64,000 bases of DNA from Elusimicrobiota bacterium (GCA_044221725.1 JBGAON010000004.1:192001-256000); one strand, 5' to 3'. Shown: positions 39,601 to 63,714, numbered from the stretch's first letter. The notes: generated by a model from the sequence alone, not told the origin. Program-made: numbers and translations.

Positions 39601-39816
39601 ATTTAATGTGACCTCGGCGCCCACGAGCGCGCGCACGTTCGCGCGTCGCGCGGCCTGATAAAAGCGCGGCGCGCCATACACGCCGTCTTTATCGACGAGC
39701 GCAATCGCCGACAAATTTTTTTCAACCGCGGCCTCAATCAATGTTTCCGGTTCCGACGCGCCTTCGAGAAAAGAAAACGCCGATGCCGCGTGCAGTTCAA
39801 TGTACGGAGCGTTCAT
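36661..39816 (-). CDS. dnaE2: Error-prone DNA polymerase DnaE2 (ImuC)
   Basis: ELHAASAFSFLEGAS, GRGSAANS, PDIDLD, PRHLGQHSGG, FQVESRAQ, YGFPESHAASFA, RQRPGTAKG, terminal SHNFH; TGATG overlap with imuB. Confidence 0.96.
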   Translation of the reverse strand: MNAPYIELHAASAFSFLEGASEPETLIEAAVEKNLSAIALVDKDGVYGAPRFYQAARRANVRALVGAEVTLNLEELGPSALRSRLTLLVENRTGYKNLCRLLTTAALASEKGKSAATWEQLALYADGLHCLTGGDEGPFHQLLTPSLNTPHETLPKLVDRLSSIYAGRLHMEIQRHHRRDQERRNQTLVALAAHEKLPLVATNGTRYARRANKELFDVMTCVRHGTTLDASRALLAVNRERHVKSAAEMNAYFSDLPEALRGTTELGERLRFTLADLGYEFPDYPLPKGDTPISYLRRLTWRCAEERFTPLTERARAQIAKELDVIEKLNLAGYFLIVRDIVEFCQEKKILVQGRGSAANSAVCYALSITAIDPIKMDLLFERFLSEERGEWPDIDLDLPSGNQRERVIQHLYEKYGVHGAAMTANVITYRGKSAIRDVSKAFGYSLEQVGKLSSFVGALEPSEIKSRPGLLASRIVGAGLDPNDPRVRRMIGQWLRLLGLPRHLGQHSGGMVLARNRLDEIVPLEKATMPGRVVIQWDKEDCADLGLIKIDLLGLGMLAAIEDALPRILRHENVHVDLAHLPQDDPKVFEMLRAADTVGVFQVESRAQMASLPRTAPTRFYDLVTQVAIIRPGPIVGGMVHPFFERRAGKASVEYLHPCLEPILKRTLGVPLFQEQIIRMAMVAAGFTGGEAEELRRAIGFKRSEERMEAIEKRVRAGMEKNGITGAAQNKITDLITAFALYGFPESHAASFALIAYASAYLKAHHPAAFTASILNAWPMGFYSPATLVKDAQRHGVEVYPIDVNYSFWECELEGTTRDHQSFRVGLRFVKGLRETLARHIAHERAQHPFDGVQDLARRCGAKPDELTNLAHAGAFGSFGLERRAALWQVAQVNRSPGPIFDRLKQPNDSPLTEMSAREKTKADYRTTFLTVGAHFLEHERERLTRDGVLATNDLLKIKDGTYVKTAGAVIVRQRPGTAKGFVFLTLEDEFGMVQGIVRPDLFDSYRATLLEAGAIIIEGVLQKTADLCSVRVTKLSPIAAPPVVSHNFH

Positions 39817-41321
39817 CAGTCGTACATCCCGTCGACAAACCACGCGTTGCGCACGGAATCGTGATAAATGCGGTAAAGCGAACGGTCGCTGAGCGCCACG
39901 TCCCAATACGCGCGCCGTTCCAATGTTTCGGTCCACCACGCGTCTTCAATAAGCCACGGGCCGGCCGCGCGTTCCACGGTTCCTTCGATGCGGTAGCGGT
40001 CCGCGTGTTTTGTGCGCACGCGCACCGGTCGTTGCGGGGATCCGTTCACAAGCACATCAATCGGAACAGCCGGGCGGAACACACGCACTTCGGCGAGCGT
40101 GCGAGAAGAAGGAATCTTTTTTTCGTCAAAGAACAATTTTTCGGTCGGCGGCCGGAACGGTTGTAACGCGAAGCGTTCGGGGCACGGACCGTCAACCGCG
40201 CGCGGTGACCCCACGCGGTCCGCGCCGAGCATCGCGACGAGCCGCGCCGTGGCCGTGTTCAGTGCATCGTTTGACAATGCGGGCGGACCAAACAACGACA
40301 ATTGTTGCGCGCGCGGACGCTCGGGTTCAACGCTCACGCGAATCATGGAGACCGGCCCGGTCAACGGACGCCGTTCGAGCTCCGCGCGAATCAGTGTGAG
40401 CAACACCGCGCTGTCGCGTGTGGGCGCCGGCAAATCGAGCGCGCGTTGTTCGTGTCCTTGCGGTTCGATGCGCATAAAAATTTCGAGACGGCGACACGCG
40501 AGTGCTTGTAGATTCAATCGCGCCAACAAACGCTCGAGCAAACCGCGTAGCGCGATGAGAAATGGCTCCATCTCCCCGATTTCCCATTCGAGTTCGACGC
40601 CTTCCACGTACGTGAGCGTGTGCGGACGTGGTACGAGCGGCTCGGCGTCCCCGCCGCGCGCTTGTTTGTGGAGTTGCCCACCTTCTTTGCCGAGCCGCAC
40701 GAGCACATCGCGCTCGGACAATTTCGCGAAGTCACCAATCGTGCGCACGCCCCACTTTTCAAACAAATTTGACAACGCGAGCGAAAGCGGCAATTGCTCG
40801 ATCGGCAGCGCATCGAGAAACTTTCGTTCGTGGCCGGCTTCGACAACAATCACGTCGCGCGCGCGCTGCGCCGCGATGCGCGCAACGAGTTTGCTGCTGG
40901 CCGCGCCCGCGCGCACGAACAAGTCCAATTTGCGCGCGCGTCGCACCGCGTTGTCGGCCAAAAATTGTTCGTGCGAATCCTGATAGGTGTCCAAGTAAAC
41001 AATTCCGTCGCCGCCATCTTCGACGCGCGGCGAAAACGCTTCGGCCACTTCAATGAGCGCTCGTTGGCAGCCTTTCTCGGCTTCGGCATCGCGCGCGCGG
41101 AATGCTACGTGCGGCGCAATCGCTTTCGCTTGCGGAATCGAAAGTCCGACGAACAGGCCGGCGGCTTCGGCGGAGGGGGAAATAGAAGCCACACGCGCCT
41201 GAGGGGTGGTGCCACTCACCATGGCCACGGGTTCCGAGCGACGCTCCGGGTTCGCGCGCACGTACGCGGCCCACGGGAAGCACGGGATATAGAGACAAAG
41301 CAATCGTGTGGAAGATACCAT
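39816..41321 (-). CDS. imuB: Y-family polymerase-like ImuB
   Basis: FSPRVE, LPIEQL, WGVRTIGDF, QQLSLF clamp-binding motif, AGPW....WW, WFVDGMYD; lies between imuA and dnaE2. Confidence 0.9.
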   Translation of the reverse strand: MVSSTRLLCLYIPCFPWAAYVRANPERRSEPVAMVSGTTPQARVASISPSAEAAGLFVGLSIPQAKAIAPHVAFRARDAEAEKGCQRALIEVAEAFSPRVEDGGDGIVYLDTYQDSHEQFLADNAVRRARKLDLFVRAGAASSKLVARIAAQRARDVIVVEAGHERKFLDALPIEQLPLSLALSNLFEKWGVRTIGDFAKLSERDVLVRLGKEGGQLHKQARGGDAEPLVPRPHTLTYVEGVELEWEIGEMEPFLIALRGLLERLLARLNLQALACRRLEIFMRIEPQGHEQRALDLPAPTRDSAVLLTLIRAELERRPLTGPVSMIRVSVEPERPRAQQLSLFGPPALSNDALNTATARLVAMLGADRVGSPRAVDGPCPERFALQPFRPPTEKLFFDEKKIPSSRTLAEVRVFRPAVPIDVLVNGSPQRPVRVRTKHADRYRIEGTVERAAGPWLIEDAWWTETLERRAYWDVALSDRSLYRIYHDSVRNAWFVDGMYD

Positions 41322-41330
41322 CGCACGCTC

Positions 41331-42041
41331 TCACGTGTTCGGTCGAACCGCGAGCGACAAACGTTTTGGTCGCGTGAGCGCGGCGCCGCGTTGGCGGATC
41401 ATTTTCATTTGTACGGACAGCCCTTCGAGCAACTGCCACGAACTTGTGGGGTTTGTCCAATGGCTCGCGAGCGCGGACGTTTCGATGCACAGGTCGGCCG
41501 CCGTGCTCGCAATTCGGTGCGGCGAGAAAACAAACGCAATGCTGTCGTGTGTTTTCGTTTCGCGCGCGATGCGCCGCCATGCGGCGTCGTTCGTGGGGGC
41601 GAGCCTCATTGGTTTAATCCCTAAGTCCAACATCACCATGCGGAAGCCGGCGTTCAGAACAATTTCGGTGCTTTTAAGCGCGTCGGTGAATTTCATGGGT
41701 CGCACCCAAAATACGTGCTCGAGTTGCACGCCCGCGTCTTGGGCGCCCGTCGGATCAAAATGATCGCCCCAATCGATGAGCGCGGCGTTTTCTCCGCTAG
41801 AGGTGGCCGCGGCCAAAAGCGCGATCTCCAGTGAAAATTTTCCGCTGGATCCGTTGCCGGTGATTTCGACGAGAGAGCCGCGCGGCAAGCCGCCGTTCAA
41901 TTGATCGAACGCGGGCACGCGGCTTAAAAAAACCGGGCGTTGATGTTCGGTGTGGCGGGCGTTTAAGAAATAACTTCCGGTGTTCAGGACGCTCGGTTCA
42001 AACGACGCCAACAACTTTGCTAATGATTCGGCCGTGTTCAT
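41331..42041 (-). CDS. imuA: RecA-like ImuA
   Basis: GGLPRGSLVEITG..SSGK, ALID..D.FDP..A..AGV.L, MVMLD; position upstream of imuB. Confidence 0.85.
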   Translation of the reverse strand: MNTAESLAKLLASFEPSVLNTGSYFLNARHTEHQRPVFLSRVPAFDQLNGGLPRGSLVEITGNGSSGKFSLEIALLAAATSSGENAALIDWGDHFDPTGAQDAGVQLEHVFWVRPMKFTDALKSTEIVLNAGFRMVMLDLGIKPMRLAPTNDAAWRRIARETKTHDSIAFVFSPHRIASTAADLCIETSALASHWTNPTSSWQLLEGLSVQMKMIRQRGAALTRPKRLSLAVRPNT

Positions 42042-42132
42042 GCGATGATTCCTTGTGGCTCGAACCGAGGGTTTTCGAGGTGCAGAAAAGATTATCGCAA
42101 ATGAAGTCAAGTGCTGCTGCCAACGGAGCGCA

Positions 42133-42753
42133 TCAATGTTCGGTCGGAATTTTTTTGATGAGCTTTGCGATAATGCGCAAATCGTTCACGAACGCGGCGT
42201 GTTCGCGGTGGCGCGCCGCATCGTCGGGGGCGCGTAGAATGGAAGACGGGTGAACCGTCGCGATCACGACCGGTGCCCATTTTGATGCCACCGGTTTGCC
42301 GCGACTTTTCGTCACGCGAAAATCTTTTCCGAGCAACGTTTGCGCGGCGGTCGATCCCAAACACACGAGTACTTTTGGTTTGAGCGCCGCGAGTTCGGCT
42401 TCGAGCCACGGCATGCACGCTTGGATTTCAATACGGTTCGGTTTCTGGTGAATGCGACGCTGGCCGCGCGGTTCCCATTTGAAATGTTTGATGGTGTTCG
42501 TGACGTAAGCCGCGCTGCGATCAATGCCCGCTTCTTCGAGCGCTGCATCGAGCAGTGCGCCGGCCGGGCCCACAAACGGTTTGCCCGCGAGATCTTCTTT
42601 GTCGCCGGGTTGTTCGCCCACAAACATCACGGTGGCCGTGCTTTTTCCTTCACCGAAAACAGTTTGCGTTCCCGTTTTCCACAAATGACAAGCGCGGCAA
42701 CCGGCGGCCTTTTTGCGCAACGCATCAAGCGTGCCACGAACGAGCGTGTCCAT
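42133..42753 (-). CDS. udgX: UdgX-family uracil-DNA binding protein (family 4 UDG, Fe-S)
   Basis: CRAC.LW..GTQTVFGEG, VGEQPGD.ED, KHFKW..RG.RRIH.KP (R-loop), TVHPSS.LR. Confidence 0.9.
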   Translation of the reverse strand: MDTLVRGTLDALRKKAAGCRACHLWKTGTQTVFGEGKSTATVMFVGEQPGDKEDLAGKPFVGPAGALLDAALEEAGIDRSAAYVTNTIKHFKWEPRGQRRIHQKPNRIEIQACMPWLEAELAALKPKVLVCLGSTAAQTLLGKDFRVTKSRGKPVASKWAPVVIATVHPSSILRAPDDAARHREHAAFVNDLRIIAKLIKKIPTEH

Positions 42754-43658: not shown

Positions 43659-45605
43659 TTAACGAATAACGGCGAGCGTGCCGCGTTGATGCGAGCCCAC
43701 GGCATCGGTGAGATAAAAATAAAGACCGGCGGCCACCTGTTCACCGTGATCGTTCGTGAGATCCCAGTTCGCCACGCCGGCGGCAGGTTGAACGCGGCGC
43801 ACGAATTTTCCGGCCACCGTAAAAATTTTTACTTCTTTTTCGGAGACGCCATAAAAATTAATGCCGCCCGTGTCTTTGCCGGCGGTCCATGGGTTGGGCC
43901 CCACTTTGAATTCGGAAATGGTGAGCGGGGGCGACGGTGATGCCGGCACTTCGGGAATGCTCGGCGCACCCGGTAATGAGGGGGGTGTTGGCCCTGCAAC
44001 AATTGCATAGTTTTGGCCGATGCGCGTGCCCGAGGTTGGATTGATGACGCCCATTGCGAATGTTGCGGGGCGCGCGACGAGTTCCGCCGGAATCGACGCG
44101 CGCAGTTCTTGCGCGCTGACAAACTGGGGCGTGAGGTCGCGGCCGTTAAATCGCACGAGGCTTGCCGGTTCGAATCCGTTTCCCAAAACCGCGAGCATGA
44201 ACGCCGGCGCGCCCGCCGAAACGGCCGGCGGAACCACCGACGTAAGCGTCGGGTTGCCCACCACATAAAAGTCGAGCGTTGATGACAAGCGCGCGTTCTG
44301 CACAACATTCACGCGGCGGCGTCCTTGTTTTTGCAGATGGGTCGCCGGAATCAAAACTTTGATCAGCGTGGGCTCGACCGAGATCGGCGCAAACGGGGCG
44401 CCTGCAAAGAGCACCATGTCGCTGGAGCTGAAACCGCTACCGGAAATTGAAACGATCGTGTCCCCGCTCGCTGTTTTTACCGCGGACGGTTGCAAAACGG
44501 TCAGTTGGGAACCGCTCGGCGGCGACGCGGGCACCGCGAGTCGTGGACAGTCGCCGCGCACGTGCGGTGTGAACCAATTCCATAGCGCGGCGTCGCCGGT
44601 GTTCAAGTGCCACAGATCGATGGCCGGAACATCTTTGCTCATCAACAGCTGCACGCGTTTTTGCGTGCCCATCGCGTCGTCGACCCAAATTTCGTGAACG
44701 GAGTTGTCCGGGGCCGTGTACTGAAAGTGCAACGTGTCTTCGACCGGATCGCGAACAGGAGTGATATTGCGGTCGCGAGCAATCTGCATGGCGTCTTCAA
44801 ACCGAATTAATTTCCCAGACCCTCGCGGCGAGACGGGCCAATCCCATCCGTAAAGACTTAAAAGAATGCGGGCCTTGTTCGCGGGAATCTTGTACGTGGG
44901 GTTTGTCAGGATCGTGTCGGCCAATTTTCCGAGCATCGCGTACGTGATCACCGGCCCGGGCGGGCTTGTGTTGTACGAATAGTAATAGGCCATCACGCGC
45001 AAATAGTCGACATAGGGTTCGATCCCTTTCCAATCCACGGTGTGACCCTGTTCGCCGCCGCCCGGCGTTTTTGGTTGAACCACGGCCGCCAGGCGTTTCT
45101 CTGCGGGCAGCGCCGCGCGCAGCTCTTGCATGAATTGCGTTAACAACGGCGTTGTCGCACGCAGCACATGCTCGTAATCGATTTCGATGCCTTGGCCCAA
45201 CGCGCTGATCGCCACAATTTCTTTAATGTGTTGCGCGCGTTGCACCGGATCGGACAGCACACGTTGAAGCATGGCGCTGTCCCCAAGGTCGGCACAGGGC
45301 CCCGGTGTCGCGCTTAGTTCGTTCACGATATCGATGAGAATAAGACGGTTCGGATCATTAACGAGTTCGCGGGAAATATCATCTTCCCAGGTGCTCTTTG
45401 GCTCCAAATGACAAGAGCCATTGAACTGATACGAGAAGACGTTGATCGCTTGGTAATTGGAACCTTGTTCGTTGATGGTGGATTCACCGCGAACTTGGTC
45501 TGTAATATAACTCGCCGAGCAAAACGTATCGGCCGCCCAGCCTGGCGGCAAGGCGGCCTCGAACAACCACACGCACCAAAAAAAATTCGGAAGCGAGCGG
45601 AACAC
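43659..45605 (-). CDS. Secreted GH18 glycoside hydrolase with two IPT/TIG domains, a Pro-rich linker and a T9SS-CTD/FlgD-like tail
   Basis: GIEIDYE catalytic motif, RVMAY, LYGWDW; Ig-like repeats with G.GF; tail VGPNPW..IFTVAG..VR..WD.TN..GE.VAAGLYFY....LAVIR. Confidence 0.8.
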   Translation of the reverse strand: MFRSLPNFFWCVWLFEAALPPGWAADTFCSASYITDQVRGESTINEQGSNYQAINVFSYQFNGSCHLEPKSTWEDDISRELVNDPNRLILIDIVNELSATPGPCADLGDSAMLQRVLSDPVQRAQHIKEIVAISALGQGIEIDYEHVLRATTPLLTQFMQELRAALPAEKRLAAVVQPKTPGGGEQGHTVDWKGIEPYVDYLRVMAYYYSYNTSPPGPVITYAMLGKLADTILTNPTYKIPANKARILLSLYGWDWPVSPRGSGKLIRFEDAMQIARDRNITPVRDPVEDTLHFQYTAPDNSVHEIWVDDAMGTQKRVQLLMSKDVPAIDLWHLNTGDAALWNWFTPHVRGDCPRLAVPASPPSGSQLTVLQPSAVKTASGDTIVSISGSGFSSSDMVLFAGAPFAPISVEPTLIKVLIPATHLQKQGRRRVNVVQNARLSSTLDFYVVGNPTLTSVVPPAVSAGAPAFMLAVLGNGFEPASLVRFNGRDLTPQFVSAQELRASIPAELVARPATFAMGVINPTSGTRIGQNYAIVAGPTPPSLPGAPSIPEVPASPSPPLTISEFKVGPNPWTAGKDTGGINFYGVSEKEVKIFTVAGKFVRRVQPAAGVANWDLTNDHGEQVAAGLYFYLTDAVGSHQRGTLAVIR

Positions 45606-52395: not shown

Positions 52396-53446
52396 TAGAA
52401 GTTCGCATAGTAAGTGCAACAGTAAGTAGTTGAGGAGTTGGTTATCCCTTTAAACTGAGGGATACCATGAAATACAAGCACTTAACCGACGGCGAACGAG
52501 AAACGTTGTCGTATATGAGAGCTTGTGGCAAATCGATACGAGAGGCAGCGTTCTATTTGAATCGAGCGCCCAGTACGATTGCCAGAGAAATACGGCGCAA
52601 TAAGAGTCGAGCACGTTATCGGTCCCATCTGGCCCATCGGGCTGCTATAGATCGACGCCATCAGACGCTCCGACGTCAACATCGGTTTAAAGCTGATCCT
52701 CAGCTGAGAGATCGTGTTATCGAATGGCTTAAGGCAGGATGGTCCCCTGAGATTATCGCAGGCCGACTGAAGCGTGAAGCCCATGGCAAGTCCGTAATAC
52801 ATCATGAGACCATCTATCGTTGGATTTATCGATACGATCGATCTCTCATCAAGTGTCTCGTCCGATCACATCCTCGTCGGTATCGTCGTCATCAACGGCG
52901 CTGGCCGAATCGAATTATCCCTCGACGGATTTCAATTCTCCAGCGCCCCGATTTCATTAACCAGCGCAAACAACCAGGGCATTGGGAATCTGACTTGGTG
53001 TGGGGATCTGGACGCGCTGCTCTGCAAGTGCTTGTCGAACGAAAAACCCGTTTCGTCTTTATTCGCAGAACCCGCAATAAATCCGCTCAAGCCAATTACG
53101 ATGCGCTCTCTGAAGCATTGGAACAAATCCCAACTTCTTTACGGCGCACCATCACGTATGATAATGGAAGCGAGAACACACTGCATTGTGAACTCAATGA
53201 CCGTTTCCAACTGCAATCGTTCTTCTGTCAGCCGTATCACGCCTGGGAAAAGGGAACCGTAGAAAACACCAACGGTCTGATCCGTCGATACTTCCCCAAA
53301 CGCACCAACTTCGATACCATCTCAGTTCACCAAATCGAAGACGTTCAACGTCGCCTTAACAACAGACCTAGAAAATGTCTTCGCTTTCAAACAGCCGGGG
53401 AAGCCTATTCTTCCACCTTCCGTTGCACTTAAAACGCGAATTCAGC
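52396..53446 (+). mobile_element. IS30-family insertion sequence (~1051 bp)
   Basis: Imperfect 25-bp terminal inverted repeats (17/25 identical; core TTCGC....TAAGTGCAAC) flanked by a CGA direct repeat at 52393-95 and 53447-49; encodes an IS30 transposase. Confidence 0.9.
52467..53432 (+). CDS. IS30-family transposase
   Basis: HTH Y.HLT..ER..LNRAPSTI.RE.RRN; WSPE.IAG; HETIY; DDE residues in GHWESD / TYDNGSE / WEKGTVENTNGLIR. Confidence 0.96.
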   Translation: MKYKHLTDGERETLSYMRACGKSIREAAFYLNRAPSTIAREIRRNKSRARYRSHLAHRAAIDRRHQTLRRQHRFKADPQLRDRVIEWLKAGWSPEIIAGRLKREAHGKSVIHHETIYRWIYRYDRSLIKCLVRSHPRRYRRHQRRWPNRIIPRRISILQRPDFINQRKQPGHWESDLVWGSGRAALQVLVERKTRFVFIRRTRNKSAQANYDALSEALEQIPTSLRRTITYDNGSENTLHCELNDRFQLQSFFCQPYHAWEKGTVENTNGLIRRYFPKRTNFDTISVHQIEDVQRRLNNRPRKCLRFQTAGEAYSSTFRCT

Positions 53447-53514
53447 CGAAAACCGTTACAAGTCGTTCACGACTCCTTAAAAGATCCTTAATATATTTTA
53501 GTTGTAATGAGCGC

Positions 53515-56500
53515 ATGCGAAGGTTCTTCCCTTTCCGTCGATCTTTTACGTTTTTTTTGGCCATGGTTATGTTCGCCACAAATGTTGTTTGGGCCCACCG
53601 CTTGCCTCTGGAAGCCGTCAATTCGCGCATAACGGTGCCAAACGAAATGGGTATCGTTCGCAATGTTTTCCCAGCGCTCCGTGCCAAACCCGCCAAAGGG
53701 ATTGTTGTCCATATCCAAGATATTCACCGTCAAGCCGAAGCACAAGCAAACATCAGTCGCGCGCTCCAATATTTGTTCACGCATTCCAATGTTGGTTTCG
53801 TTGGAATCGAAGGCGCTTTTTCGGAGGTAGAGACGAAGCCATTCCGGAAACATTCGAACCAGCACGATCGGGCCATTGTCGCCGATTCTCTTTTGACCGA
53901 TCAGAAAATCGCGGGCCCGTTGCATGCGGCGTTCGTCGGTTCGCCCGATATCCCGTTTATTGGCATTGATAACAGTGCGCTGTACGAAAGGAATCGGCGC
54001 GCGTTTCTCATCGCGTCACGGCATAAATGCGTTTTGCAAGCCGAGGTTCGCGCGCAGCAAGCAAAGCTCGAGATTCAAAAGCGTCTGACGTTTAACCGGA
54101 AGATGCGGGAATTCGATGCAGCGGTTTCAACATACGACAACGGCCACATGTCGGCGGCGCAGTTCGTTCGCGTGCTCCAGCGAGCGCGCGCGCCGCTCAC
54201 ACCGTTGTTAAATAATTTTCTCAAAGGAGTATATCTCGAAACCGTTTTGCCGTTGGACGGCGTCACGAAAGATCGCGCCATGGCACTGGCCTATATCAAT
54301 TACCGCCGCTCCGCGCAGGGCATCGACATTCGCCAACTTATGTCCGACATCGAATCCGCCAAAAAATCCACCTACGCCGCGTTGTGCAAATCTCAGCGCG
54401 AGCACAAAATGCTGGCGGTCCATCGGCGACTCTATTTGTTGAGGAAACTGGTTGACTTTTCGTTATCACGGGAAGAGTGGAAGGAATGGCAAAAGGTGCA
54501 GCGCACTTCGTGCGGTCTCCTACGAAAGCGTTCCGAAGCCAATCTGAGTTCTTTTGAGGATTTTTACCGGCAGGCCGAATCCCGGGACAATGCCATGGCG
54601 GAAAAATTTCTGGAAGAGATACAGCGTACGAAGCACGCGGTACGCGGTACCTTTGTCTTAGTGACAGGAGGTTTCCATGCCGATGGCATTGACGCGGTCT
54701 TGCGCGACGCGGGTTACGAAGTCGTTGCATTCGTGCCGCGTGTTTCCAAACCAGATATAAGCGCGTCGTACTTGAACGCATTTCTCCGCGAGCAAACGCC
54801 GCTTGAAAAGCTCTTCCACGGTGAAAGGTTGTTCCTTGCTGAACGGGTCGCCACAACCGAACAGAATGTTGAAGCGGGAATGTTGCTCATGGCGCAAGCT
54901 GTTTTCTCGCGTCGGTTGTCCTTTGTGCAGGCGTCGCAGCTTTTTGAACGAATCATGCGTTCGTTCCGGCAACCTATTGAAGTAAAGCTCCGCGTTCTTC
55001 ATTCCGATTCAACGGCGATCGCCGGACAAATCGAGCGAACCGGCTGGTTGTCCGCTCGTTTTCGAATTTCGCGAGATGAAAATATGCTTCACCTGGATTG
55101 GGTGAAACGCTCTGCGGTTGTTGGCGTTGTGACGCTTTTCGCTTTTGCTGTTGGGCGTCGACTGGTATTAACGATCGATGGCGCCACGCTCGCACAAATT
55201 TCCTGCGTCGTGCTGCTGGCGGCCGCCGTCCTTGTCCTGACCATAATGGTGGTGTGGTTTCCACCGCGCGGACCGCAAATGGCATTGGCCGGAGCGAGTA
55301 AGCTATTGCCAGTACGAATTTCCGATTTGGTTGGAAAGACCAGTGAAGAGCTGGCAACAACGTGGGCGTCTGTTTTTGGTGAAAGTGACAAACAAGACAC
55401 ATCACGATCGCGAGAAACATCGACCCAGTCTGCGTGGCACGACATTCAAATCGATAACGCCGCAATCCAACAACATCTGAAGCGGTACCGTGCAATTGTC
55501 ACGACGTTGGAAAATTATCTTAAGCAACATACCGCAAAAAAAATGCCGGATTTGGAGCAAGCCTTAAAAGACGCTGGCGTTAATGAACACTATCCGGATT
55601 TTCATCTCAGCGAATGGACGGCCGCGCTGCCGACGCTCGATGTTGATCGAATTCTCGCAAACGTCTTTGACGATCTTGAAGAGCAAATCTGCTATCCACG
55701 CGGGTTTTCGGTGGATGGGCCAACGAACATGTTTCGGCTGTCGCGTTGGAAAGAGATTGTCACGCCGCTCGGACGTAAGATTCGCCTTTATGAAGTCGAC
55801 TTGGGTTCGTTGCAAATTGGCTCGACGCTCACGAACCGATACCGCGCGCATTCGATTATCGCGGTTTCCGGTCTGCGCAACGAGTTCTTAAGAAAAATGC
55901 GTACGAATCGATCGCCTTACATTGACACGTTAAAGAACACAAGTGGGTTCGAGGACTATGACCCGGATGCTGTTATCAACGATGCGTACGGAAACAGTTC
56001 CGATATGGAGGCCATTTTGCAAATGCATCCTTATCTGCGGACTGGCAACTGGCGTGGAGCGGTGCTAAAAGATTCCGGCGTCTTGAAAAGCGCGGCGATC
56101 GGAGACCCGTCGTTATGGACGGTCGCGGCCCGCGTGCTGTTCCATGTCTTCTCGCAACCGCGCAAATTCAATCTGGCGCTCCTGCTCGATGGCTTGAATA
56201 ACATGCGGTCCATTCTGCCGCGCGATTATCTTTTCGCCGAGCCGTTGTTGAGAATTATGTGGCCGGACTGGGATGGAAAAGGCAATGCGATTGATGTGTT
56301 GGAAGAGCACTTTCGTCGAAATCCGCCCGCGTTCGCGATGGTCGTTAAAGAGGCGATTCTGGATTACTACAGACAAGAACTTCCGTCTGAAGAAGAGCTG
56401 GCCAGATTGGTTACCACCACCGAGCGCGTGTATTTTCCTCGACTTCAACGTGCTTATGAGCAGATGGTCCTGATGGCGTCCCACCCGAAACCGGACCCCG

Positions 56501-59500
56501 CGCGGCAATTGGCTTCCGAGAATGAATTCCTGCCAGCGTTGCTGGATTCGTTGCGAATGGTGGCCGCGAATAACACCATCCAGCCATTGGAAAATCTTTT
56601 GCCGATGGACGAGACTCTGATGTCTCCGTGGGACAAGGTGCAGTGGCAACGAACCCTCACTTTGCTCCGACGAGCGATTAATTGGTGGAGCGGCCGAGAG
56701 GCGGATGGCTATCAGGCCATCTATTCGTTTCGTGTGTTGCTGGCCACGATCAACGAATTGTGGTTAATCCCGCGACGCGAGTTGCTTGTCGGAATCGACA
56801 CAAACGGTTCTATTGATATCCCCAACGAGCGGTTTGCCGTCGGTGCTATCGTTGGTGATGAGTTGCCGAGCACAACGGTCGACAATTTTTCGTTACGCAC
56901 GTTTCTTGTCGATTTGCCCGACGCGCTTGCGAATACTTTATCGTACGGCGTATTCGTGGTGGATCTGCGGCCGGCTCCGTCGTACGTGGTCGCTGATCGG
57001 AAGTCCGCTGCAAAATTTATTCGTGATTTTCAGTCCGATCCCGAAGTGATTGCCATTGCTACTCGGTGGGCGACGGAACGTGGTCTCGTGGTGGACAATG
57101 CGGCAACAGTTTATCTGGTTGCGCTTCAGCAATTCTATTTCCTGAACTATTTGTTTGTGTGGTGGCTTCAGCAGGCACACAATCGATATCTCCATCACTG
57201 GGCCGTGTTGCCCGCCGCAGCGCTGTGCGCTATTCCGTCGAATATCGTTTTGGCGTTGCCAACCCTCTGGGCGTTGGAGAAAAACCGTGCATTCGACCAA
57301 GTGCGCGGATACACAAGCCCAGAATTTATCCTGGGTTTGGAAAGGATTTATGCGGCGTTTGCCGACGCGTTCGGAATAAAGGTGGATATTCGACGAGATG
57401 GTCCGGCAGAAGTGACCCGGGCTTTGGAAGCAAGCAAAGAAAACCCGTTGCGAAGGATGACGCAGGCCGCCGCGCTGAAATTAGCCGAAATCGGTCACCT
57501 ACCAAAAATAGGATTTTCTGCCTGGCCTGCCGTGGTGGCGGCATTCGCCCCCCTATCGCCAACAATAGTTAAGGTCCATTTGCAGATTGTGAATGAGCGG
57601 GATATTCCGGCGCCCACACCGCCGACCCGAATTTACGCGATGGCGGCGGCGTCTCGTTCCGCTCCGGAGCTGGAGACAGTGTCGCGCTCGCAGGTCCATT
57701 CGCAGGGGGTCACCATGCGTATCGTTGATGAGCTAAGCTTTCTTCTGAACGATATTGCGACCGTCGGTGATGTCGACGTCGACATCGCAAAAAAAGAGGA
57801 TAAGGCATCCGAAAAAAATCAGGTTGCCTATATCACGGACGAACACGGAAGCGACAGGCTCGTGATCAAAGTGGGCACTGCGTTCGCAAGCAAAAACGAC
57901 GACGAGACCGTGTTGGCGGTTCTTACCCGGGTTCGAACACAAATATCAAACGCGCTCCAATCCCCCTATCAGCAATTGCCCGTTTTGCTGCACGGTGCCA
58001 TCAATAGGCTTTTCGAAAATGCGGACCAACCGTTTGAGGTTTTTGGACCAGCGATAAATACGTTCCCATCCGGAGAAAGAAAAAAACTTCGATGGTTGGA
58101 TAAAGAGCTGGGAAAAGCATGCGCTGTGTGGATGCCGCAAACAAAACAAAATAGATTTTTGTTGGCATCGTTTGCCGCGCGTTGGCTCAATGAAAACCAC
58201 CTGCTCGATCGTGCGCATATTCTTGTTCCATTGGGCGAAAAGCGTGCAGGCGTTCCGCATTTTCTTTATTTGCCTGTTGCGTACGCCGCCGGCCATTTTG
58301 CCGGGCGGCCTGTCTGTTACGTTTCTAATCTTGAAACAGGTGTGGCGGTGAATGCCACGCTAAATTCCGCGTTGCATCTGATCATTATTTCGACGGATCA
58401 GATTCCAATCGAACGCGATGAGTACCATCGCAAAATAAAGGAACTTCCGGTGAAGCCCGATAATCGCCTGGCCGCGGTGAGTTTCATTCTTGCGGGCGTT
58501 CTTCTAAAAGATGCAACAGAAAAAATGTCATCGCTGGAAAAGCGCCGGTTTTATGATGAAGCTTTTTACTCACTGAGCACCGGTCGGCACGGTCTGGCCG
58601 GCATCGATGACGCGCAGGCCAATTTCGCGCTTTCATACTTCTTGATCCCTTCGTTGGGCCAAAACAAAAGTCTGCTCGGTTATTCTCTCGTTATTTGGTC
58701 GCTGGTGTTGCTTCATCATGTGGTACACAAAGAGGATCAGTCGATTCACACGTTTGCAAAGCAGATCGGCTCTGTCGCGCAAATATTGAATGAAATGCTC
58801 GGTGGGGTCGTCGCTGGTACGTCCTCGGCGGAATCGATGCTGCACGCGATGGGCCACGTCGATGACGGTGCCCTCGTCGCGCTCGGTGATAAACTGGCTG
58901 CGAAATTGGATCCGTTGTTGCAACGGTACGGAATGCACGCCGACGTCGCTGAAGCGCAAGCTTTGTTCGCGAAAACAACCGTCGTCAAAATTGCCGGTGC
59001 CGATAACAAGTCGTTGCCGGTTGTGGGCTTCGCGCCGATTCTTTCCCCGGCGGCCCCGTCGTTGCACACAACGCAGCACGATTATAAGAAGGATCAGGAC
59101 CCGGAAAAGAAAAAGAAGAAACAGCCGGAGAGTAAAATTACCGACCGGGTTTTACCGGAAAAGATATCTGAGGATATTCAGGCACTTGCGATGTTCGCAG
59201 GTCCGAACGAATCGGATTGGCCGGCCGTCGCAATTGATTATGGTCTCGATTATTCGGCTCAAGACCTCCACGAGTTGTACGGACTTTACACAGAAGATCA
59301 CCGCTTCGAAGGCTTGCGTTCGGAGTATCCTGGGCACGAAACGATTGCAGCGTTGATTGGTGTGTTTGGATTCAATGCCGAAGAAATTGGAAAACACCGG
59401 CACGTTGCAGCAGGAACTGCTCATACGTGGTTCACTGATTTTGTGCGAAATATTTACCGCAAAAATCCCAACGTCACAACTTGGACCAATGATGAATGCG

Positions 59501-62500
59501 GCGGGCACGCAGCGGAGGCTCAAGAGATTTTCCGCACGGAACCCAATCTCGAATCGCTTCGGTACGAAGCGCCTGGCGCGAGAGATTTGGTGGCGCTGGC
59601 AAAGGCATCCGAATTCGATGCCGATAAATTCGCCGTGCTGCGAGGAAAAGGAGTATCGACAAAAAAGGCTCATCGATGGCTTCGCGAATACGTGGAGGAC
59701 CGGTACAACCGAGACGGTCACAATATATTGCCGTGGGAGACGGATCCTGATTTTGGCAAGCCAGCCATAAAATTCTTTCTTAACGATCCTGAATTGGCGC
59801 TCGCGCGTGTTCTGCAACCCGGTAATAAAGATATGTTGGCACTGCTGATGCAAACGAAAGCCAACGCGAACGCAATCGCAACGCTCCGTGGAGCCAATGT
59901 CAAAGACGTTCGTGGTTGGATCACAAATTTTTTGATCAACGATCCGGTTTGCCGCGGTCGCGTGAAAGAAATGGCTCTGAAATGCGGCCTCACCGTGGAT
60001 GAAATAAGCCAAGGTCTCCTTGATTCAAAATTGGAAGACGTCGCGCTAAAAGTGCGCCAGCAACGCCCCACCGAGGACCAATTGAGGTCGATCATTCAAT
60101 TGCTGAAAGGGAGTCTCGTCGCGGTAGCCGATGCGTACGACGTGGAACCGATTGTTGTGTACAAATGGGTTCACGATCCGGCGTTCTCGAATTGCGCGGC
60201 GAATTATCGGGATAAATATTTCAATGACGACAAAGTTGTCGGCCGTTGGCGAACCTTTTATCGCGGAAATCTCAAGCCGGTGGCTCACGCGTTGGGTTGG
60301 TCCGAAGCGCAGATTGATCACCTCAACAAAAAGAAAATGGCATCCCTCGCGCTTCGCCGCGCCCAAGGGCTTGGGCTCGACATGTTGCGGATTTTGGATG
60401 CTCTGTATAACAACGCTGAATTGCGTAACGATCGAGCAGAGATTCTTACCTGGCTCGCTGCTCACTGCGACGATTTGTTTAGACGAAACGAATTGGGGCA
60501 ACCGGAAATTCACCAACAAGTCGGAAGTATTGTTGCGCCTATCGCGTGGCCAGACGAACGCCACAAAATTGAACGCGCTTACAAAATAACCGCTTTTTCG
60601 GTGGCCGGTTACAAAGACGCACCGAACTTTTCAATCGCGGCCGACAACGTTGCGTTTGATTTCGTCGTTGAATCCAATGCGTTTCCATTTTTGCATTGGA
60701 CTCGGCTCATCGTACAAGGCGGCGTTCCGTCCACAATTGAAGTCGAGGCGTTGCCCGACAACAAATGGCGTATCAGTGGGTCGGTGCTTCTTACGGATCG
60801 TAAGCCCGGCGCGGTGAGCGACCTTCGATTTTGTCTCGTCGACGATTCCATTGACGCATCGGGCCCGGTGTTCGGTCCGATTGCTTCAGCAACAGTACGA
60901 TACGTCGGCGAGGACAAGTTGAACCGCACAAGCGCGCGCGTGCAATTGGAGTTCTGGCAAGACCGGCTTGTGCCGCGCACAGAGAACGATCGTTCTCGCG
61001 TGATCCGAAAACTAAAAGAAAACGTCGAGCGTATCCTCATGGCCGATTTTCAAGAAGACCGCACCAGGGGTTTCGCCGAATTGGATCGGCTTATCGAAAT
61101 TCAACGCGCGGACGTTCGGCTCTACATGGATGAAAACAACGTGCTTGGCCCCAATCGAGATCATGTGAATTATTTTTATATCGAAGGTAATGAAACAGTG
61201 GGACGGCTTAAAGCTGTTGAGCCGGACACCGCATTGGGTTTCGATCGTAACTTTGAAGCGCTGGTGGACGCGTTGCGCATCCTGCTGGAAATTCGTTCAG
61301 AATGGATTGATGTGGAATCTTTCAAATTACCGGAATTGAAAGCGGGCATTGAGCATAGTTATCCGCAAAGAGTGGCGGCCGTAAAACTGTTTAAAAAAGT
61401 GACCGGCGCGATGGTGGACGTCAATGTGGGCGAAGAGCTCGTGGTCGCTGGCCTTGCTGTTGATCGTATGGCGCATGGTTTGTCCGCGATGGACATCCCA
61501 GCCGGTGGACACGCGGTCATTGTCGTTAACCCGTTGCACAAAAACAAATGGATCAAAGCATTTGAATCTTATGAGCGGCCTACGAGATTTCTCGATTTAA
61601 CCGGAAAAACAGCCGAGCGCACAAAGGCGTTAAAGAAATTTGAGAGCGATGCGACAACGCCGCACGTTATTTTCGTTACCCAAGATTATTTGAGATCGCT
61701 TGAAAAGGGCCGCACGTCTCATCCCGCGGTGTCGTTGATTCGCACCAATTTATGCGTCGTTGTTATTACGGGCGCGCAAACGTTGGGCGCATCGGATTCC
61801 ACTCTCGCCGAGTCTGTCCGCAAATTTGTGCCGACAGATAAGCGCGTGCCGGTGGTTATTGTCGCCTCTCCAGCGGCGCAGCACGAACTTGGGGCGCTTG
61901 ACCGCGTGTTGGCTTTTATTCGCGAGATGACGGGACTTACAGTCGGGCGTAGAAGCATTAAAGCGGCGTCCGATATTTTGAAGCCGCAGCGCCTGGCGGG
62001 CTTGCAAGATTTGCTGAACGAACGGCTCGTTTATCTCGATCCGCAAAAAATCTTTAAACCGTTCTCGTCGGAACATCCACACGAAGCGGATCGAATGCCC
62101 GAGATTGTCTACGAAACCAAAACTTACGAGATGCCGTTGTCATTGATGACACGATTGCTTGGTGTGCGCGCCGATCCTGCCAACAAAAAAAGCTACGTGC
62201 TCGGAGAAAACAAGCTGCGCGATGTGCTCGGCGATTTGTCCATTGAAAATTTAAAAATAGGATTGCTTCGTGATGTGATCGAAGAAGAGCGGCAGCACCA
62301 CGGTCAAGCCAAAGTGGCGGTCGTTACACGCCGTCAAGATACAGTGGCGCACATCCTCGCCACGTTTGGCGATGCTGCGGTAGGGCTCGCCGAAGAAGCG
62401 ACAATTCGGAAGGTTCAGCGGAGTTATATTGTTGCAGCAAAGAACTCTCAATTGGAAGCAAACATAGATGTATTTAAAACCCGTCCGAATGTTCACGTGA

Positions 62501-63714
62501 TCGCTATGACAATGGACACAGGGACAAAACATGGCAATTTGGAAATGCCAAACGCGACCTGTGTGGTGTATTGGGATCCGCCCCGTTCCGCAAACGACCT
62601 CGCCGCGGTGTTGCATGGTGTGTCTCCCGGCGCGCCAACACTGCGTTTTCGTATTGTTAATTTCGCGGCAACTTACAATGAGCAAGCCATCGCAAACCAT
62701 GGCGTTGGGTTGGGTCCGCTTGCGTTCCGAACATTCTTCGACGCATACGAGCGCGTGCGGTTTCAACGCGTTCGCAATTTGATGCGCATCGCGGCCGAAT
62801 TGCTTGATTTGCATTTTACCGAAGGCGAAGCGGGCGGTTGGGTGCAAGACAAACTGGATCTTTTGAAAATGCTTGTTGAGCAGTTAAAAGATAGCGGCGC
62901 GGTCCCCGACGTGCCCGTGGAGCAAGTGGATCACAGTGCCGGATTGACGCGGTCTCAGAAGGACGAGGTGTACGCCGAAGTGGCGCGGCTGTTCGAATAT
63001 CAGCGAACACACACAAACAAGCCGAACTTGGTGGAAGTGCGAAATGAGGCAACCAATGCTCTGCGAGAAGTTTTCATGTCCGCGGATAACAAAGAGTTGT
63101 CATTCCTCACGCACATTCAGCAAGAAATTGATGAGGGAAGCGTGGATTTCGATGCGATACCGTTGCTGCGAAACTGGACAGCTTTTTTTAAGAGCTTGGT
63201 TGAATCCGGGTTTGACGTGAACGATCGGCTGGCCGTTTTGCATCACATGCACGAAGAAAAACAGTTGCAATGGGGGCAGCTGATCCCTTCGCAAAAATTC
63301 AGCAGTGGGAAGAAATCATTCGAATTTGCGTACGATCAGCGGCACGAAATCAGAAAGTTGGGGGGTGCCGATGTTTTGTTGCATTTGTTCAACCAAGCCT
63401 ATCCGCACCTGAAAGTGAGTGAATTGAATGCGAAGGCGCTTCAACTGTTGATGCAGCATGCGGATCGGTTCTGGACGTCCGGCGATTGGCCAGAATTCAT
63501 TAGGCATCTCATTGAAGTTACGAGCCGTATGTTGGAGAAAAAACGGATTGTCGAACAGTTGAATCAATCAGCGGATGGAAATGGTAACGATCACGCGACC
63601 GATAATGGCGCGGAGAACGGAAACGGTTTGTCGATCAACGATCTGGTTGCGCCGGCCACAAAAGCGCCAATTATTTCTGTCCATGACGACCAACAAGTCC
63701 GTGCCGCCGCATAA
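53515..63714 (+). CDS. Giant (3399 aa) exported multidomain protein: TraB/TIKI/ChaN-like N-domain, TM helices, HTH-like repeats, degenerate SNF2-like helicase
   Basis: Uninterrupted 10.2-kb ORF with a signal peptide; motifs HIQDIH, GIEGA, RDNAM, TGGFH; hydrophobic hairpin at about 55111-55263; degenerate SF2 motif order at 61351-62680. Confidence 0.85.
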   Translation: MRRFFPFRRSFTFFLAMVMFATNVVWAHRLPLEAVNSRITVPNEMGIVRNVFPALRAKPAKGIVVHIQDIHRQAEAQANISRALQYLFTHSNVGFVGIEGAFSEVETKPFRKHSNQHDRAIVADSLLTDQKIAGPLHAAFVGSPDIPFIGIDNSALYERNRRAFLIASRHKCVLQAEVRAQQAKLEIQKRLTFNRKMREFDAAVSTYDNGHMSAAQFVRVLQRARAPLTPLLNNFLKGVYLETVLPLDGVTKDRAMALAYINYRRSAQGIDIRQLMSDIESAKKSTYAALCKSQREHKMLAVHRRLYLLRKLVDFSLSREEWKEWQKVQRTSCGLLRKRSEANLSSFEDFYRQAESRDNAMAEKFLEEIQRTKHAVRGTFVLVTGGFHADGIDAVLRDAGYEVVAFVPRVSKPDISASYLNAFLREQTPLEKLFHGERLFLAERVATTEQNVEAGMLLMAQAVFSRRLSFVQASQLFERIMRSFRQPIEVKLRVLHSDSTAIAGQIERTGWLSARFRISRDENMLHLDWVKRSAVVGVVTLFAFAVGRRLVLTIDGATLAQISCVVLLAAAVLVLTIMVVWFPPRGPQMALAGASKLLPVRISDLVGKTSEELATTWASVFGESDKQDTSRSRETSTQSAWHDIQIDNAAIQQHLKRYRAIVTTLENYLKQHTAKKMPDLEQALKDAGVNEHYPDFHLSEWTAALPTLDVDRILANVFDDLEEQICYPRGFSVDGPTNMFRLSRWKEIVTPLGRKIRLYEVDLGSLQIGSTLTNRYRAHSIIAVSGLRNEFLRKMRTNRSPYIDTLKNTSGFEDYDPDAVINDAYGNSSDMEAILQMHPYLRTGNWRGAVLKDSGVLKSAAIGDPSLWTVAARVLFHVFSQPRKFNLALLLDGLNNMRSILPRDYLFAEPLLRIMWPDWDGKGNAIDVLEEHFRRNPPAFAMVVKEAILDYYRQELPSEEELARLVTTTERVYFPRLQRAYEQMVLMASHPKPDPARQLASENEFLPALLDSLRMVAANNTIQPLENLLPMDETLMSPWDKVQWQRTLTLLRRAINWWSGREADGYQAIYSFRVLLATINELWLIPRRELLVGIDTNGSIDIPNERFAVGAIVGDELPSTTVDNFSLRTFLVDLPDALANTLSYGVFVVDLRPAPSYVVADRKSAAKFIRDFQSDPEVIAIATRWATERGLVVDNAATVYLVALQQFYFLNYLFVWWLQQAHNRYLHHWAVLPAAALCAIPSNIVLALPTLWALEKNRAFDQVRGYTSPEFILGLERIYAAFADAFGIKVDIRRDGPAEVTRALEASKENPLRRMTQAAALKLAEIGHLPKIGFSAWPAVVAAFAPLSPTIVKVHLQIVNERDIPAPTPPTRIYAMAAASRSAPELETVSRSQVHSQGVTMRIVDELSFLLNDIATVGDVDVDIAKKEDKASEKNQVAYITDEHGSDRLVIKVGTAFASKNDDETVLAVLTRVRTQISNALQSPYQQLPVLLHGAINRLFENADQPFEVFGPAINTFPSGERKKLRWLDKELGKACAVWMPQTKQNRFLLASFAARWLNENHLLDRAHILVPLGEKRAGVPHFLYLPVAYAAGHFAGRPVCYVSNLETGVAVNATLNSALHLIIISTDQIPIERDEYHRKIKELPVKPDNRLAAVSFILAGVLLKDATEKMSSLEKRRFYDEAFYSLSTGRHGLAGIDDAQANFALSYFLIPSLGQNKSLLGYSLVIWSLVLLHHVVHKEDQSIHTFAKQIGSVAQILNEMLGGVVAGTSSAESMLHAMGHVDDGALVALGDKLAAKLDPLLQRYGMHADVAEAQALFAKTTVVKIAGADNKSLPVVGFAPILSPAAPSLHTTQHDYKKDQDPEKKKKKQPESKITDRVLPEKISEDIQALAMFAGPNESDWPAVAIDYGLDYSAQDLHELYGLYTEDHRFEGLRSEYPGHETIAALIGVFGFNAEEIGKHRHVAAGTAHTWFTDFVRNIYRKNPNVTTWTNDECGGHAAEAQEIFRTEPNLESLRYEAPGARDLVALAKASEFDADKFAVLRGKGVSTKKAHRWLREYVEDRYNRDGHNILPWETDPDFGKPAIKFFLNDPELALARVLQPGNKDMLALLMQTKANANAIATLRGANVKDVRGWITNFLINDPVCRGRVKEMALKCGLTVDEISQGLLDSKLEDVALKVRQQRPTEDQLRSIIQLLKGSLVAVADAYDVEPIVVYKWVHDPAFSNCAANYRDKYFNDDKVVGRWRTFYRGNLKPVAHALGWSEAQIDHLNKKKMASLALRRAQGLGLDMLRILDALYNNAELRNDRAEILTWLAAHCDDLFRRNELGQPEIHQQVGSIVAPIAWPDERHKIERAYKITAFSVAGYKDAPNFSIAADNVAFDFVVESNAFPFLHWTRLIVQGGVPSTIEVEALPDNKWRISGSVLLTDRKPGAVSDLRFCLVDDSIDASGPVFGPIASATVRYVGEDKLNRTSARVQLEFWQDRLVPRTENDRSRVIRKLKENVERILMADFQEDRTRGFAELDRLIEIQRADVRLYMDENNVLGPNRDHVNYFYIEGNETVGRLKAVEPDTALGFDRNFEALVDALRILLEIRSEWIDVESFKLPELKAGIEHSYPQRVAAVKLFKKVTGAMVDVNVGEELVVAGLAVDRMAHGLSAMDIPAGGHAVIVVNPLHKNKWIKAFESYERPTRFLDLTGKTAERTKALKKFESDATTPHVIFVTQDYLRSLEKGRTSHPAVSLIRTNLCVVVITGAQTLGASDSTLAESVRKFVPTDKRVPVVIVASPAAQHELGALDRVLAFIREMTGLTVGRRSIKAASDILKPQRLAGLQDLLNERLVYLDPQKIFKPFSSEHPHEADRMPEIVYETKTYEMPLSLMTRLLGVRADPANKKSYVLGENKLRDVLGDLSIENLKIGLLRDVIEEERQHHGQAKVAVVTRRQDTVAHILATFGDAAVGLAEEATIRKVQRSYIVAAKNSQLEANIDVFKTRPNVHVIAMTMDTGTKHGNLEMPNATCVVYWDPPRSANDLAAVLHGVSPGAPTLRFRIVNFAATYNEQAIANHGVGLGPLAFRTFFDAYERVRFQRVRNLMRIAAELLDLHFTEGEAGGWVQDKLDLLKMLVEQLKDSGAVPDVPVEQVDHSAGLTRSQKDEVYAEVARLFEYQRTHTNKPNLVEVRNEATNALREVFMSADNKELSFLTHIQQEIDEGSVDFDAIPLLRNWTAFFKSLVESGFDVNDRLAVLHHMHEEKQLQWGQLIPSQKFSSGKKSFEFAYDQRHEIRKLGGADVLLHLFNQAYPHLKVSELNAKALQLLMQHADRFWTSGDWPEFIRHLIEVTSRMLEKKRIVEQLNQSADGNGNDHATDNGAENGNGLSINDLVAPATKAPIISVHDDQQVRAAA
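59305..60190 (+). repeat. Four ~82-aa protein-level repeats inside the giant ORF
   Basis: Units start at 59305, 59548, 59794 and 60043 (FEGLRSEYPG / LESLRYEAPG / LALARVLQPG / ALKVRQQRPT), each followed by a helix-turn-helix-like segment ending in W. Confidence 0.65.

Follow-up and report, generated by a model that had tools for sequence, protein, structure and literature searches.

The locus and its open reading frame

We analyzed a gene for a giant protein in a 64,000-nucleotide (nt) stretch of DNA from an Elusimicrobiota bacterium (GCA_044221725.1 JBGAON010000004.1:192001-256000; hereafter, the window), whose source genome (G000) comprises 5 contigs and 2.82 Mb. At positions 53515-63714 on the forward strand lies an uninterrupted open reading frame (ORF) of 3,399 amino acids (aa) with no internal stops, as an initial annotation made from the sequence had described. 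The protein is one member of a family with a common signal peptide, head and promoter array in front of swappable cargo, and its own cargo includes a SNF2-fold unit that belongs to a clade private to such giants and has lost its catalysis. The features of the locus are as follows:

52396..53446 (+): IS30-family element with imperfect terminal inverted repeats (Pfam HTH_38 and rve), its end 9 nt upstream of the promoter array
52467..53432 (+): IS30 transposase, 321 aa (Pfam HTH_38 and rve (DDE))
53456..53491 (+): promoter array TTAC-N7-TCAC-N6-TTAA-N7-TTAA, 15/16 consensus bases (consensus matrix)
53503..53508 (+): -10-like hexamer TGTAAT, 11 nt past the array and 6 nt before the ATG, one mismatch to the TAnnnT pattern
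53515..63714 (+): focal ORF, 3,399 aa
53515..53595 (+): signal-peptide-like N-terminus, aa 1-27 (sequence and hydropathy test)
53626..54849 (+): shared head, aa 38-445, Tiki/ChaN-like with a helical insert (iterated profile, alignment, HHalign)
55114..55260 (+): hydrophobic hairpin, aa 534-582 (hydropathy)
55273..55296 (+): motif P-Q-x-x-L/F-A-x-A-G just past the hairpin
55372..57594 (+): unassigned region, aa 620-1360, in which aa 1071-1156 is similar to a repeat found in relatives
57667..58404 (+): module B, aa 1385-1630, alpha/beta (leave-one-out E 4e-5)
59086..59127 (+): lysine-rich linker, aa 1858-1871 (sequence)
59266..60384 (+): helix-turn-helix (HTH)-like array, three ~80-aa repeats (aa 1918-2156) followed by shorter, degenerate units as far as ~aa 2290 (profiles)
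60580..61320 (+): immunoglobulin (Ig)-like beta-sandwich (aa 2356-2463) and helical adapter (to ~aa 2602) (model, HHalign)
61312..62814 (+): putative SNF2-fold pseudo-ATPase, aa 2600-3100 (profiles, model, Foldseek; motif loss)
62842..63714 (+): C-terminal helical region (L-L-R-N-W unit, W-x-x-G-D unit) and low-complexity tail (relatives' alignment)

The focal ORF is real and not the assembly chimera that the initial annotation had kept in view. Its domain order is the same in relatives from three other genomes (G001, G007, G009), and its G+C content is flat across the modules (0.50-0.54). In an independent run from a different study (X4; wastewater per its record), all 30 bins of the gene were covered, 33 of 34 contigs agreed at ≥99%, and no joints fell inside the ORF; the whole gene was spanned by no single contig of that run, and one low-depth contig has a single-base gap. 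Two RNA libraries covered 24/30 and 22/30 bins, respectively, although such coverage is not proof of transcription.

The C-terminal cassette and its intact relatives

The initial annotation had described a string of unrelated modules, a picture that holds only in part, since aa 1900-3340 move as one conserved travelling cassette and a part of the middle resembles repeats of the relatives. The same C-terminal half is found in relatives from G001 (two), G007 and G009 as well as in the proteins P0004 and P0005, and its units keep one order: module B comes first, then the HTH-like repeats, the Ig-like domain with the helical adapter, the SNF2 fold and the helical end. The cassette occurs patchily, in 4 of the 12 genomes of the focal family, the focal genome counted; two relatives of the cassette are labelled Candidatus Omnitrophota.

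The SNF2-like fold proposed earlier was recovered at aa 2600-3100 by both profiles and a structural model (predicted local distance difference test (pLDDT) 74.7, Foldseek E 2e-15), for which 19 of the 25 alignment rows were SNF2s of the ATPase-intact clade described below. The model superposes on INO80 and ISWI with a Z of 23.7 and a root mean square deviation of ~3 Å over 410-423 residues (INO80: 3.0 Å/410). A profile built exclusively from copies lacking the ATPase motifs (hereafter, dead copies) also matched superfamily 2 (SF2) structures (Hef, E 0.003; ISWI, 0.015) and reached SNF2 proteins at E values to 1e-19; its 45 hits among 1.84 billion representatives comprised 3 dead-type proteins and 42 others, 36 of which possess Walker A.

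The Walker A Lys, the Walker B Asp-Glu and the motif VI Gln/Arg are each absent from all seven dead rows (0/7). In the intact-type rows, the Walker A Lys, Walker B Asp-Glu and motif VI Gln are each present in 17/17 and both Arg in 16/17. The dead rows do retain the motif Ia Trp (7/7), the motif V Thr/Ser (6/7) and, in part, the motif IV Arg (4/7). The motif V and motif IV positions contact the nucleic-acid backbone in SF2 helicases. Judged by these motifs, the focal SNF2 unit is a pseudo-ATPase that has lost ATP hydrolysis, and it cannot be an active DNA motor because all ATPase motifs are gone. The earlier suggestion that the cargo acts on DNA thus stands as regards its nucleic-acid-motor ancestry and falls as regards an active motor, with the ATPase motifs gone and the preceding repeat array not basic.

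We placed the unit in a tree of 35 rows, picked from an earlier quick tree and class-wide searches. The 25 polyprotein-type SNF2 modules separated from 10 stand-alone SNF2s at 100/99, and the seven dead rows formed one group (100/100). Consistent with this, the Ig-like domain and helical adapter of the dead copies matched those of the intact clade (HHalign 97.3%, E 2.7e-11; 20 column shuffles, ≤0.7%), and Glucodextran_B hits were seen at the adapter in intact relatives. The focal cassette descended from an ATPase-competent SNF2 module of such giants. Across 301 genomes of the class, polyprotein-type SNF2 modules were found in 7, with the other 18 matches reading as stand-alone SNF2s, and the intact cassette had no match among 50,697 phage records.

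Intact modules follow the focal head type (P0023, P0026, L054, L104) and at least one further N-terminus, common to P0009, P0014, P0030 and P0035. In front of these modules stand tandem repeats, which belong to several unrelated types and in the three cases counted were more basic than the focal array. A protein of the same genus (L102) carries the focal repeat type (E 3e-5), the adapter (E 1.5e-23), an SNF2 unit with Walker A, Walker B and motif VI intact, and a second, partly degenerate SNF2 unit; a likeness of its C-terminus to that of the focal protein was weak (one unit at E 0.002, the other without a match) and was discarded. We also noted that the head-family giant L054 (G007:C29) has two different tandem repeat arrays (aa ~520-1090 and 2770-3090), one ahead of its intact SNF2 and the other, later in the chain, HTH-like with a weak KfrA_N hit, and that the head-family protein L104 (G020:C12) combines HTH-like repeats, an SNF2 without the Ig adapter and a DUF488 domain. 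Among 30 intact-clade rows, a signal-like start was seen in 10, and 8 of these 10 have no hydrophobic segment before the ATPase; such proteins would therefore exit their own cytoplasm and yet need ATP and DNA.

The HTH-like repeats claimed in the initial annotation proved to be genuine repeats, as a profile built without the focal protein recovered three of them (E 2e-11 to 1e-8), whereas their HTH identity is suggested by weaker signals: sub-threshold hits to HTH_40, HTH_Tnp, Cro, RacA and homeodomain families, and an Atlas value of 0.76 with 10/10 hits in one clan, which we treat as a lead. At the other end of the cassette, aa 3110-3340 gave no Pfam hits and no recognised toxin domain, with dedicated toxin libraries outside this search. 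The focal copy shares 18-25% identity with the other dead copies, four of which share 40-47% among themselves, and the frames of all dead copies are open over 1,900-4,900 aa. Dead-clade relatives were absent from a scan of metagenome contigs. Single-sequence searches of Pfam and the PDB with the focal protein returned nothing above threshold, and a word-indexed search of aa 1900-3300 against proteins of 1,869-5,949 aa returned the focal protein itself only.

The shared head, the promoter array and the IS30 element

The N-terminal domain of ~450 aa noted earlier corresponds to a head at ~aa 38-445, which an iterated profile found in 26 ORFs of the genome (775-8,862 aa), together occupying 6.4% of it. 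Residues D69, H71, E99 and H388 (within G-G-F-H388) are invariant in 26/26 heads. The D-x-H, E(+30) spacing is that of RRSP for the first three residues of its tetrad, given as E3900, H3902, E3930 and H4030 in the available text of PMC6254334. PF04187 was detected in 14/26 heads (E up to 0.1), with one paralogue over the cut-off, and the C-terminal half of the head weakly matched 14 ChaN-family rows (HHalign 31%, E 5e-4; 15 shuffles, ≤1.6%). The N-terminal half did not match significantly (HHalign 0.2%), nevertheless with its motifs in register, and scans of this half against the PDB and Pfam gave no Tiki-family hit of note. Overall, these weak matches make the head a Tiki/ChaN-like candidate for the Tiki/TraB/ChaN/EreA superfamily. 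The head is all-or-none among 41 genomes (15-41 matches in 22/41, zero in 19/41), and the link to giants of Elusimicrobiota and Omnitrophota made in the initial annotation agrees with its close kin in Elusimicrobiota and with the two Omnitrophota-labelled cassette relatives.

What follows the head differs among the 25 paralogues, as the annotation had anticipated: only five pairs align past it, none including the focal protein. A Pfam scan of these paralogues found recognisable cargo in 14 and none in 11. The cargo comprises enzymes and regulators of mostly cytoplasmic types, namely GH18 with hexokinase, phosphorylase, glycogen synthase, 2-hydroxyacid dehydrogenase, metallophosphoesterase, adenylate kinase, PP2C with FHA, WD40, HD with dehydroquinate synthase, beta-CASP, sigma70 with protein kinase, a uridine-kinase-like domain and GGDEF. 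The modules of the focal protein likewise do not map to a known single-function protein.

Preceding the head, the focal N-terminus shows a basic n-region, a hydrophobic core and V-W-A|H, in line with the signal peptide first proposed; the call is a sequence reading with a hydropathy test, without a dedicated predictor, and 25/26 head-family members pass the same crude test. The predicted membrane hairpin is likewise visible as two hydrophobic segments (aa 534-552 and 562-580) out of three in the whole protein. It is repeated in all three close relatives with an intact N-terminus, and the two-segment arrangement recurs in 4/4 proteins examined. The P-Q-x-x-L/F-A-x-A-G motif just past it, present in the focal protein, L039 and L041 and absent from 25/25 paralogues and from P0005, is a candidate processing or insertion signal. 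In the middle of the protein, the unassigned region gave no Pfam hits (aa 620-1360) and no usable Atlas hits (aa 620-1380). Repeat profiles seeded with the focal protein are circular, and leave-one-out profiles were used instead: these recovered module B, left the unit at aa 1072-1135 marginal (aa 1071-1156 against L039, pairwise E 8e-7; leave-one-out profile E 0.057) and did not recover aa 700-770. The idea that the middle consists of three copies of one domain was accordingly dropped, and a structure model of module B was discarded (pLDDT 46.6; best Z 6.8, to helical bundles). Module B occurs in 1-2 copies in close relatives and in 4/301 genomes of the class, and middle repeat numbers vary among relatives. 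Of the low-complexity linkers reported, we located the lysine-rich stretch at aa 1858-1871.

The array upstream of the focal gene is the only match in the window (100 shuffles: 0). The consensus upstream of head genes, TTAC-N7-TTAC-N6-TTAA-N7-TTAA, is common to 25/26; 22/26 upstream regions match at least 14/16 bases, and 25 score 15-46 bits (leave-one-out). Genome-wide, 31 sites reach ≥25 bits, 23 of which precede head genes, with 0 in 3 shuffles. A TAnnnT hexamer lies 11-12 nt past the array in 16/25 promoters and the start codon at +22 to +24 in 19/25, a spacing that would place the TTAA pair over the -35 position and suggests leaderless transcripts. The same array geometry is why we prefer the start at 53515 over the later Met of the protein collection.

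The exact array pattern is found in 15/41 genomes, namely 12/12 of the focal family and 3/3 of family f10 (reversed control: 0). Family f4 has a variant array, for which the reversed control was also high in two of four genomes, and family f5 has no excess over control. In G005, the array lies 200-385 nt before the head match in 15/16 heads among the matches listed (150 of 589). No site of ≥15 bits was found upstream of the orthologues L039 and L041; read directly, both regions contain TTAA-N7-TTAA and a -10 hexamer, and the genes start at +23/+24. In one of the two the TTAC pair is displaced by roughly one turn; in the other the contig ends within it.

Further array sites precede an 8,369-aa signal-bearing giant, a tetratricopeptide repeat protein and a UPF0164 barrel. 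The giant (G000:C5:256705-281814) has neither the shared head nor a Pfam hit and has two array copies, one of 46 bits. Reversed or TTAA-only arrays precede 8,766-aa and 18,006-aa giants, PorV/UPF0164 barrels, proteins with type IX secretion system (T9SS) tails or adhesins, and a HAMP histidine kinase. The sensor kinase at G000:C2:23207, which has four TTAA half-sites, is the prime candidate for a partner of the regulators. The box order is reversed (TTAA repeats, then the TTAC pair) at G000:C5:215634, C5:243221, C2:219103, C3:580984 and C5:497246, where the promoters belong to giant adhesins, PorV-like barrels and T9SS-tail proteins. The two box orders suggest that two regulators act in a logic that yields two classes of output. 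OmpR-family regulators, of which the genome encodes nine, typically bind direct repeats spaced 10-11 bp apart; those encoded at G000:C5:212300-212992 and C2:273275-273979 adjoin the 8,766-aa and 18,006-aa giants and are candidate regulators of the array. The genome also encodes three secretins, and a search of it for SprA gave no match, with the control equally silent. A perfect array just past a head gene (G000:C3:793564), without a -10 hexamer or leaderless start, is possibly the remnant of a lost paralogue.

The element ending 9 nt before the focal array has the HTH_38 and DDE transposase and the terminal inverted repeats of the IS30 family. One identical second copy also lies directly before a head promoter, and IS30-like ends occur at one fixed offset upstream in 6/25 head promoters, one of the six being a frameshifted relative (loose matches to the IS30-end pattern number 72 genome-wide). 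In a further run (X7), one contig carries the empty IS30 site and another runs from the insertion sequence end into the promoter of a different paralogue. Because of the shared offset, the identical copy, the empty site and this joint to another paralogue, IS30 elements appear to target the array without destroying it. The frameshifted relative (G000:C3:448423-449363; 55% identity) is in reverse orientation, upstream of another head gene.

Regarding the gene neighborhood, the next ORF after the focal gene, which we take to be MsrB from its sequence, leaves no immunity gene directly downstream at this locus. A presumed acetyl-CoA synthetase-like gene lies directly 3' of the G001 relative (L038:1-804) and ~5 kb 3' of the focal gene (L027:5349-7349), a loose positional link between the two. 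Elsewhere in the window, consecutive genes whose translations we take to resemble uracil-DNA glycosylase, ImuA and ImuB (39816-42753 (-)) have the look of a mutagenesis cassette, and a secreted GH18 and TIG protein with an FlgD/CHU_C-like tail (43659-45605 (-)) resembles T9SS-type cargo in a non-Bacteroidota genome.

Interpretation and comparison with known systems

We favor, tentatively and at a little below an even chance, a co-regulated arsenal of exported polyproteins that carry cargo into another cell, with the focal member as an ATP-free binder or decoy. OmpR-type regulators would bind the two direct-repeat boxes and switch on the head genes, possibly along with those for adhesins and outer-membrane barrels, in what might be a stage of contact or attack. 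The chain would then be exported by Sec, the head may act as a hydrolase that cuts or addresses it, and the hairpin may anchor it or insert in the target membrane, with the cargo ending up inside a partner or prey cell, in its cytoplasm. There, intact relatives would work as ATP-driven DNA translocases steered by their variable repeat arrays; the focal copy, with ATP hydrolysis lost and the fold and several backbone-contact positions kept, would most likely be an ATP-independent clamp or decoy on DNA or a DNA-bound protein. We prefer delivery because intact ATPases and other enzymes, which depend on ATP and on substrates of the cytoplasm, follow a signal, with membrane segments either absent or paired. 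For the passage of giant proteins from one bacterium to another, there is a precedent in the available text of 10.64898/2026.03.19.712371. A broader version is a doubtful but live idea: one promoter signal would switch on an Elusimicrobiota/Omnitrophota arsenal of head-addressed polyproteins delivering enzymes and regulators, complete with private repeat-guided SNF2 motors, dead decoys and IS30 tuning single members.

Several points weigh against delivery to another cell. In k-mer and gapped-pattern counts, no enriched or shared cleavage motif emerged across the paralogue cargo. The membrane segments are hydropathy calls, and 20/30 intact-clade rows have no signal-like start, although two are 5'-open fragments and the rest may be fragments. 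The HTH-like array is charge-neutral (51 K+R vs. 50 D+E) and had no HTH hit at the curated cut-off, the homology of head and ChaN is weak in the C-terminal half and not significant in the N-terminal half, none of the nine OmpR-family genes has been assigned to the array, and the dead group sits on long branches, which make its exact sister or parent in the tree uncertain.

A rather unlikely alternative is a membrane scaffold in the producing cell, in which one true inner-membrane crossing or an uncleaved N-terminus keeps the cargo in the producer's cytoplasm. The head would be a periplasmic sensor or hydrolase, the family a set of co-regulated, membrane-tethered enzymes and regulators, and the focal copy a tether of DNA without ATP. 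The mostly cytoplasmic cargo types fit this, as do the marginal first hairpin segment of the focal protein (mean 1.95), the flanking charges, which give no consistent orientation, and the caution in the available text of West-Roberts 2023 (10.1101/2023.11.21.568195) that the locations predicted for domains of this kind may be incorrect. However, the paired segments in all four proteins examined, the 4/26 head proteins, one of them with a kinase domain, whose signal is followed by no hydrophobic segment, the 8/10 signal-bearing intact relatives without a segment before the ATPase, and the separation of the polyprotein SNF2 clade from housekeeping SNF2s all argue against it.

Alternatively, the family may form a surface or periplasmic structure, whose cargo sits outside without ATP and whose folds are reused as spacers or binders (e.g., of extracellular DNA or a partner surface). 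This is unlikely for the family, leaving as it does the signal-bearing relatives with complete ATPase motifs and the sigma70, kinase and phosphatase cargo of paralogues unexplained. It does account for the loss of all ATP motifs with the fold kept, the neutral HTH-like array, the variable middle repeat numbers and the related promoter arrays at adhesin genes; a spacer role, at a similarly low likelihood, remains especially for the focal dead copy, whose repeats are not basic. Near-neutral accretion, with head and promoter selected and downstream domains captured and then decaying, is improbable: the long branches, the 18-25% identity to other dead copies and the patchy presence (4/12 family genomes) would suit it, whereas the frames of all dead copies are open with a fixed domain order, and four of them share 40-47% identity with non-catalytic positions conserved. 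Finally, an assembly chimera or spurious ORF, favored by nothing beyond the missing spanning contig in the independent run, is practically negligible in view of collinear relatives in three other genomes and two further proteins, flat composition, 30/30 bins without an internal joint and a family promoter at the expected distance.

The size of the giant proteins of Elusimicrobiota and Omnitrophota has stood in the way of experiments on what they do. It is difficult to see why an ATP-dependent DNA motor should be conserved behind a signal peptide if no other cytoplasm is reached; reaching one would make these giants effector carriers, more than cell-wall weapons. The 36-bp array defines a regulon and finds its members, secretion parts included, from DNA alone; the ~850-aa cassette is available in matched intact and dead forms; and the constant head offers a candidate catalytic tetrad.

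The focal SNF2 unit shares the two RecA lobes with SNF2 insertions of SNF2/SWI2 translocases (INO80, ISWI, CSB, ZorD, SSO1653) and differs from them in its lost ATP motifs, its Ig-like adapter and repeats, and its exported chain. With polymorphic toxin systems, the head family shares a constant N-terminal part with variable C-terminal cargo, many paralogues and a lineage-restricted expansion; unlike them, it strings several cargo modules on one chain, and the focal gene is not followed by an immunity gene and has no recognised toxin domain. MARTX toxins are exported by means of RTX repeats and type I secretion. In the focal family, by contrast, the signal is of the Sec type, the Tiki-like unit is a constant head rather than cargo, and the cargo is mostly not toxin-like; several cargo domains per exported chain and the RRSP tetrad spacing are common to both (PMC6254334, available text). 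The promoters recall those activated by CtrA in Caulobacter, which, in the available text of PMC11264516, have TTAA-N7-TTAA at -35, extra upstream sites and a role in the control of surface structures. Here, the -35 position is deduced from the -10-like hexamer, and the array differs in a second repeat (TTAC-N7-TTAC) directly upstream, its mostly leaderless-looking starts and its phylum.

The closest likeness is to the archaeovorins and multi-enzyme giants of Omnitrophota (10.1101/2023.11.21.568195; 10.64898/2026.06.07.730766), which, in the available text, combine a signal peptide and membrane segments with strings of cytoplasmic-type enzymes, a divergent superfamily-2 helicase module (theirs SecA) and proposed self-processing. 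The focal family is unlike them in its size (775-8,862 aa), few membrane segments, SNF2 in place of SecA, and 26 paralogues with one head and a shared promoter, and the focal protein has 3,399 aa against ≥30,000 aa, 3 hydrophobic segments against many, and no SecA DEAD domain. The available text of both papers has no mention of Tiki, SNF2 or helix-turn-helix (their supplements and domain catalogue may list SNF2), "promoter" does not occur in that of the former, and "Elusimicrobi" does not occur in that of the latter. Literature searches combining Elusimicrobia with SNF2 or leaderless promoter motifs, or concerning IS30 targeting of regulator sites or inactive SNF2 effectors, found nothing relevant, with most subscription papers outside their reach. 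The family type is thus already known in outline, and what is new is the SNF2 cassette in intact and dead forms, the conserved regulon signal and the targeted IS30.

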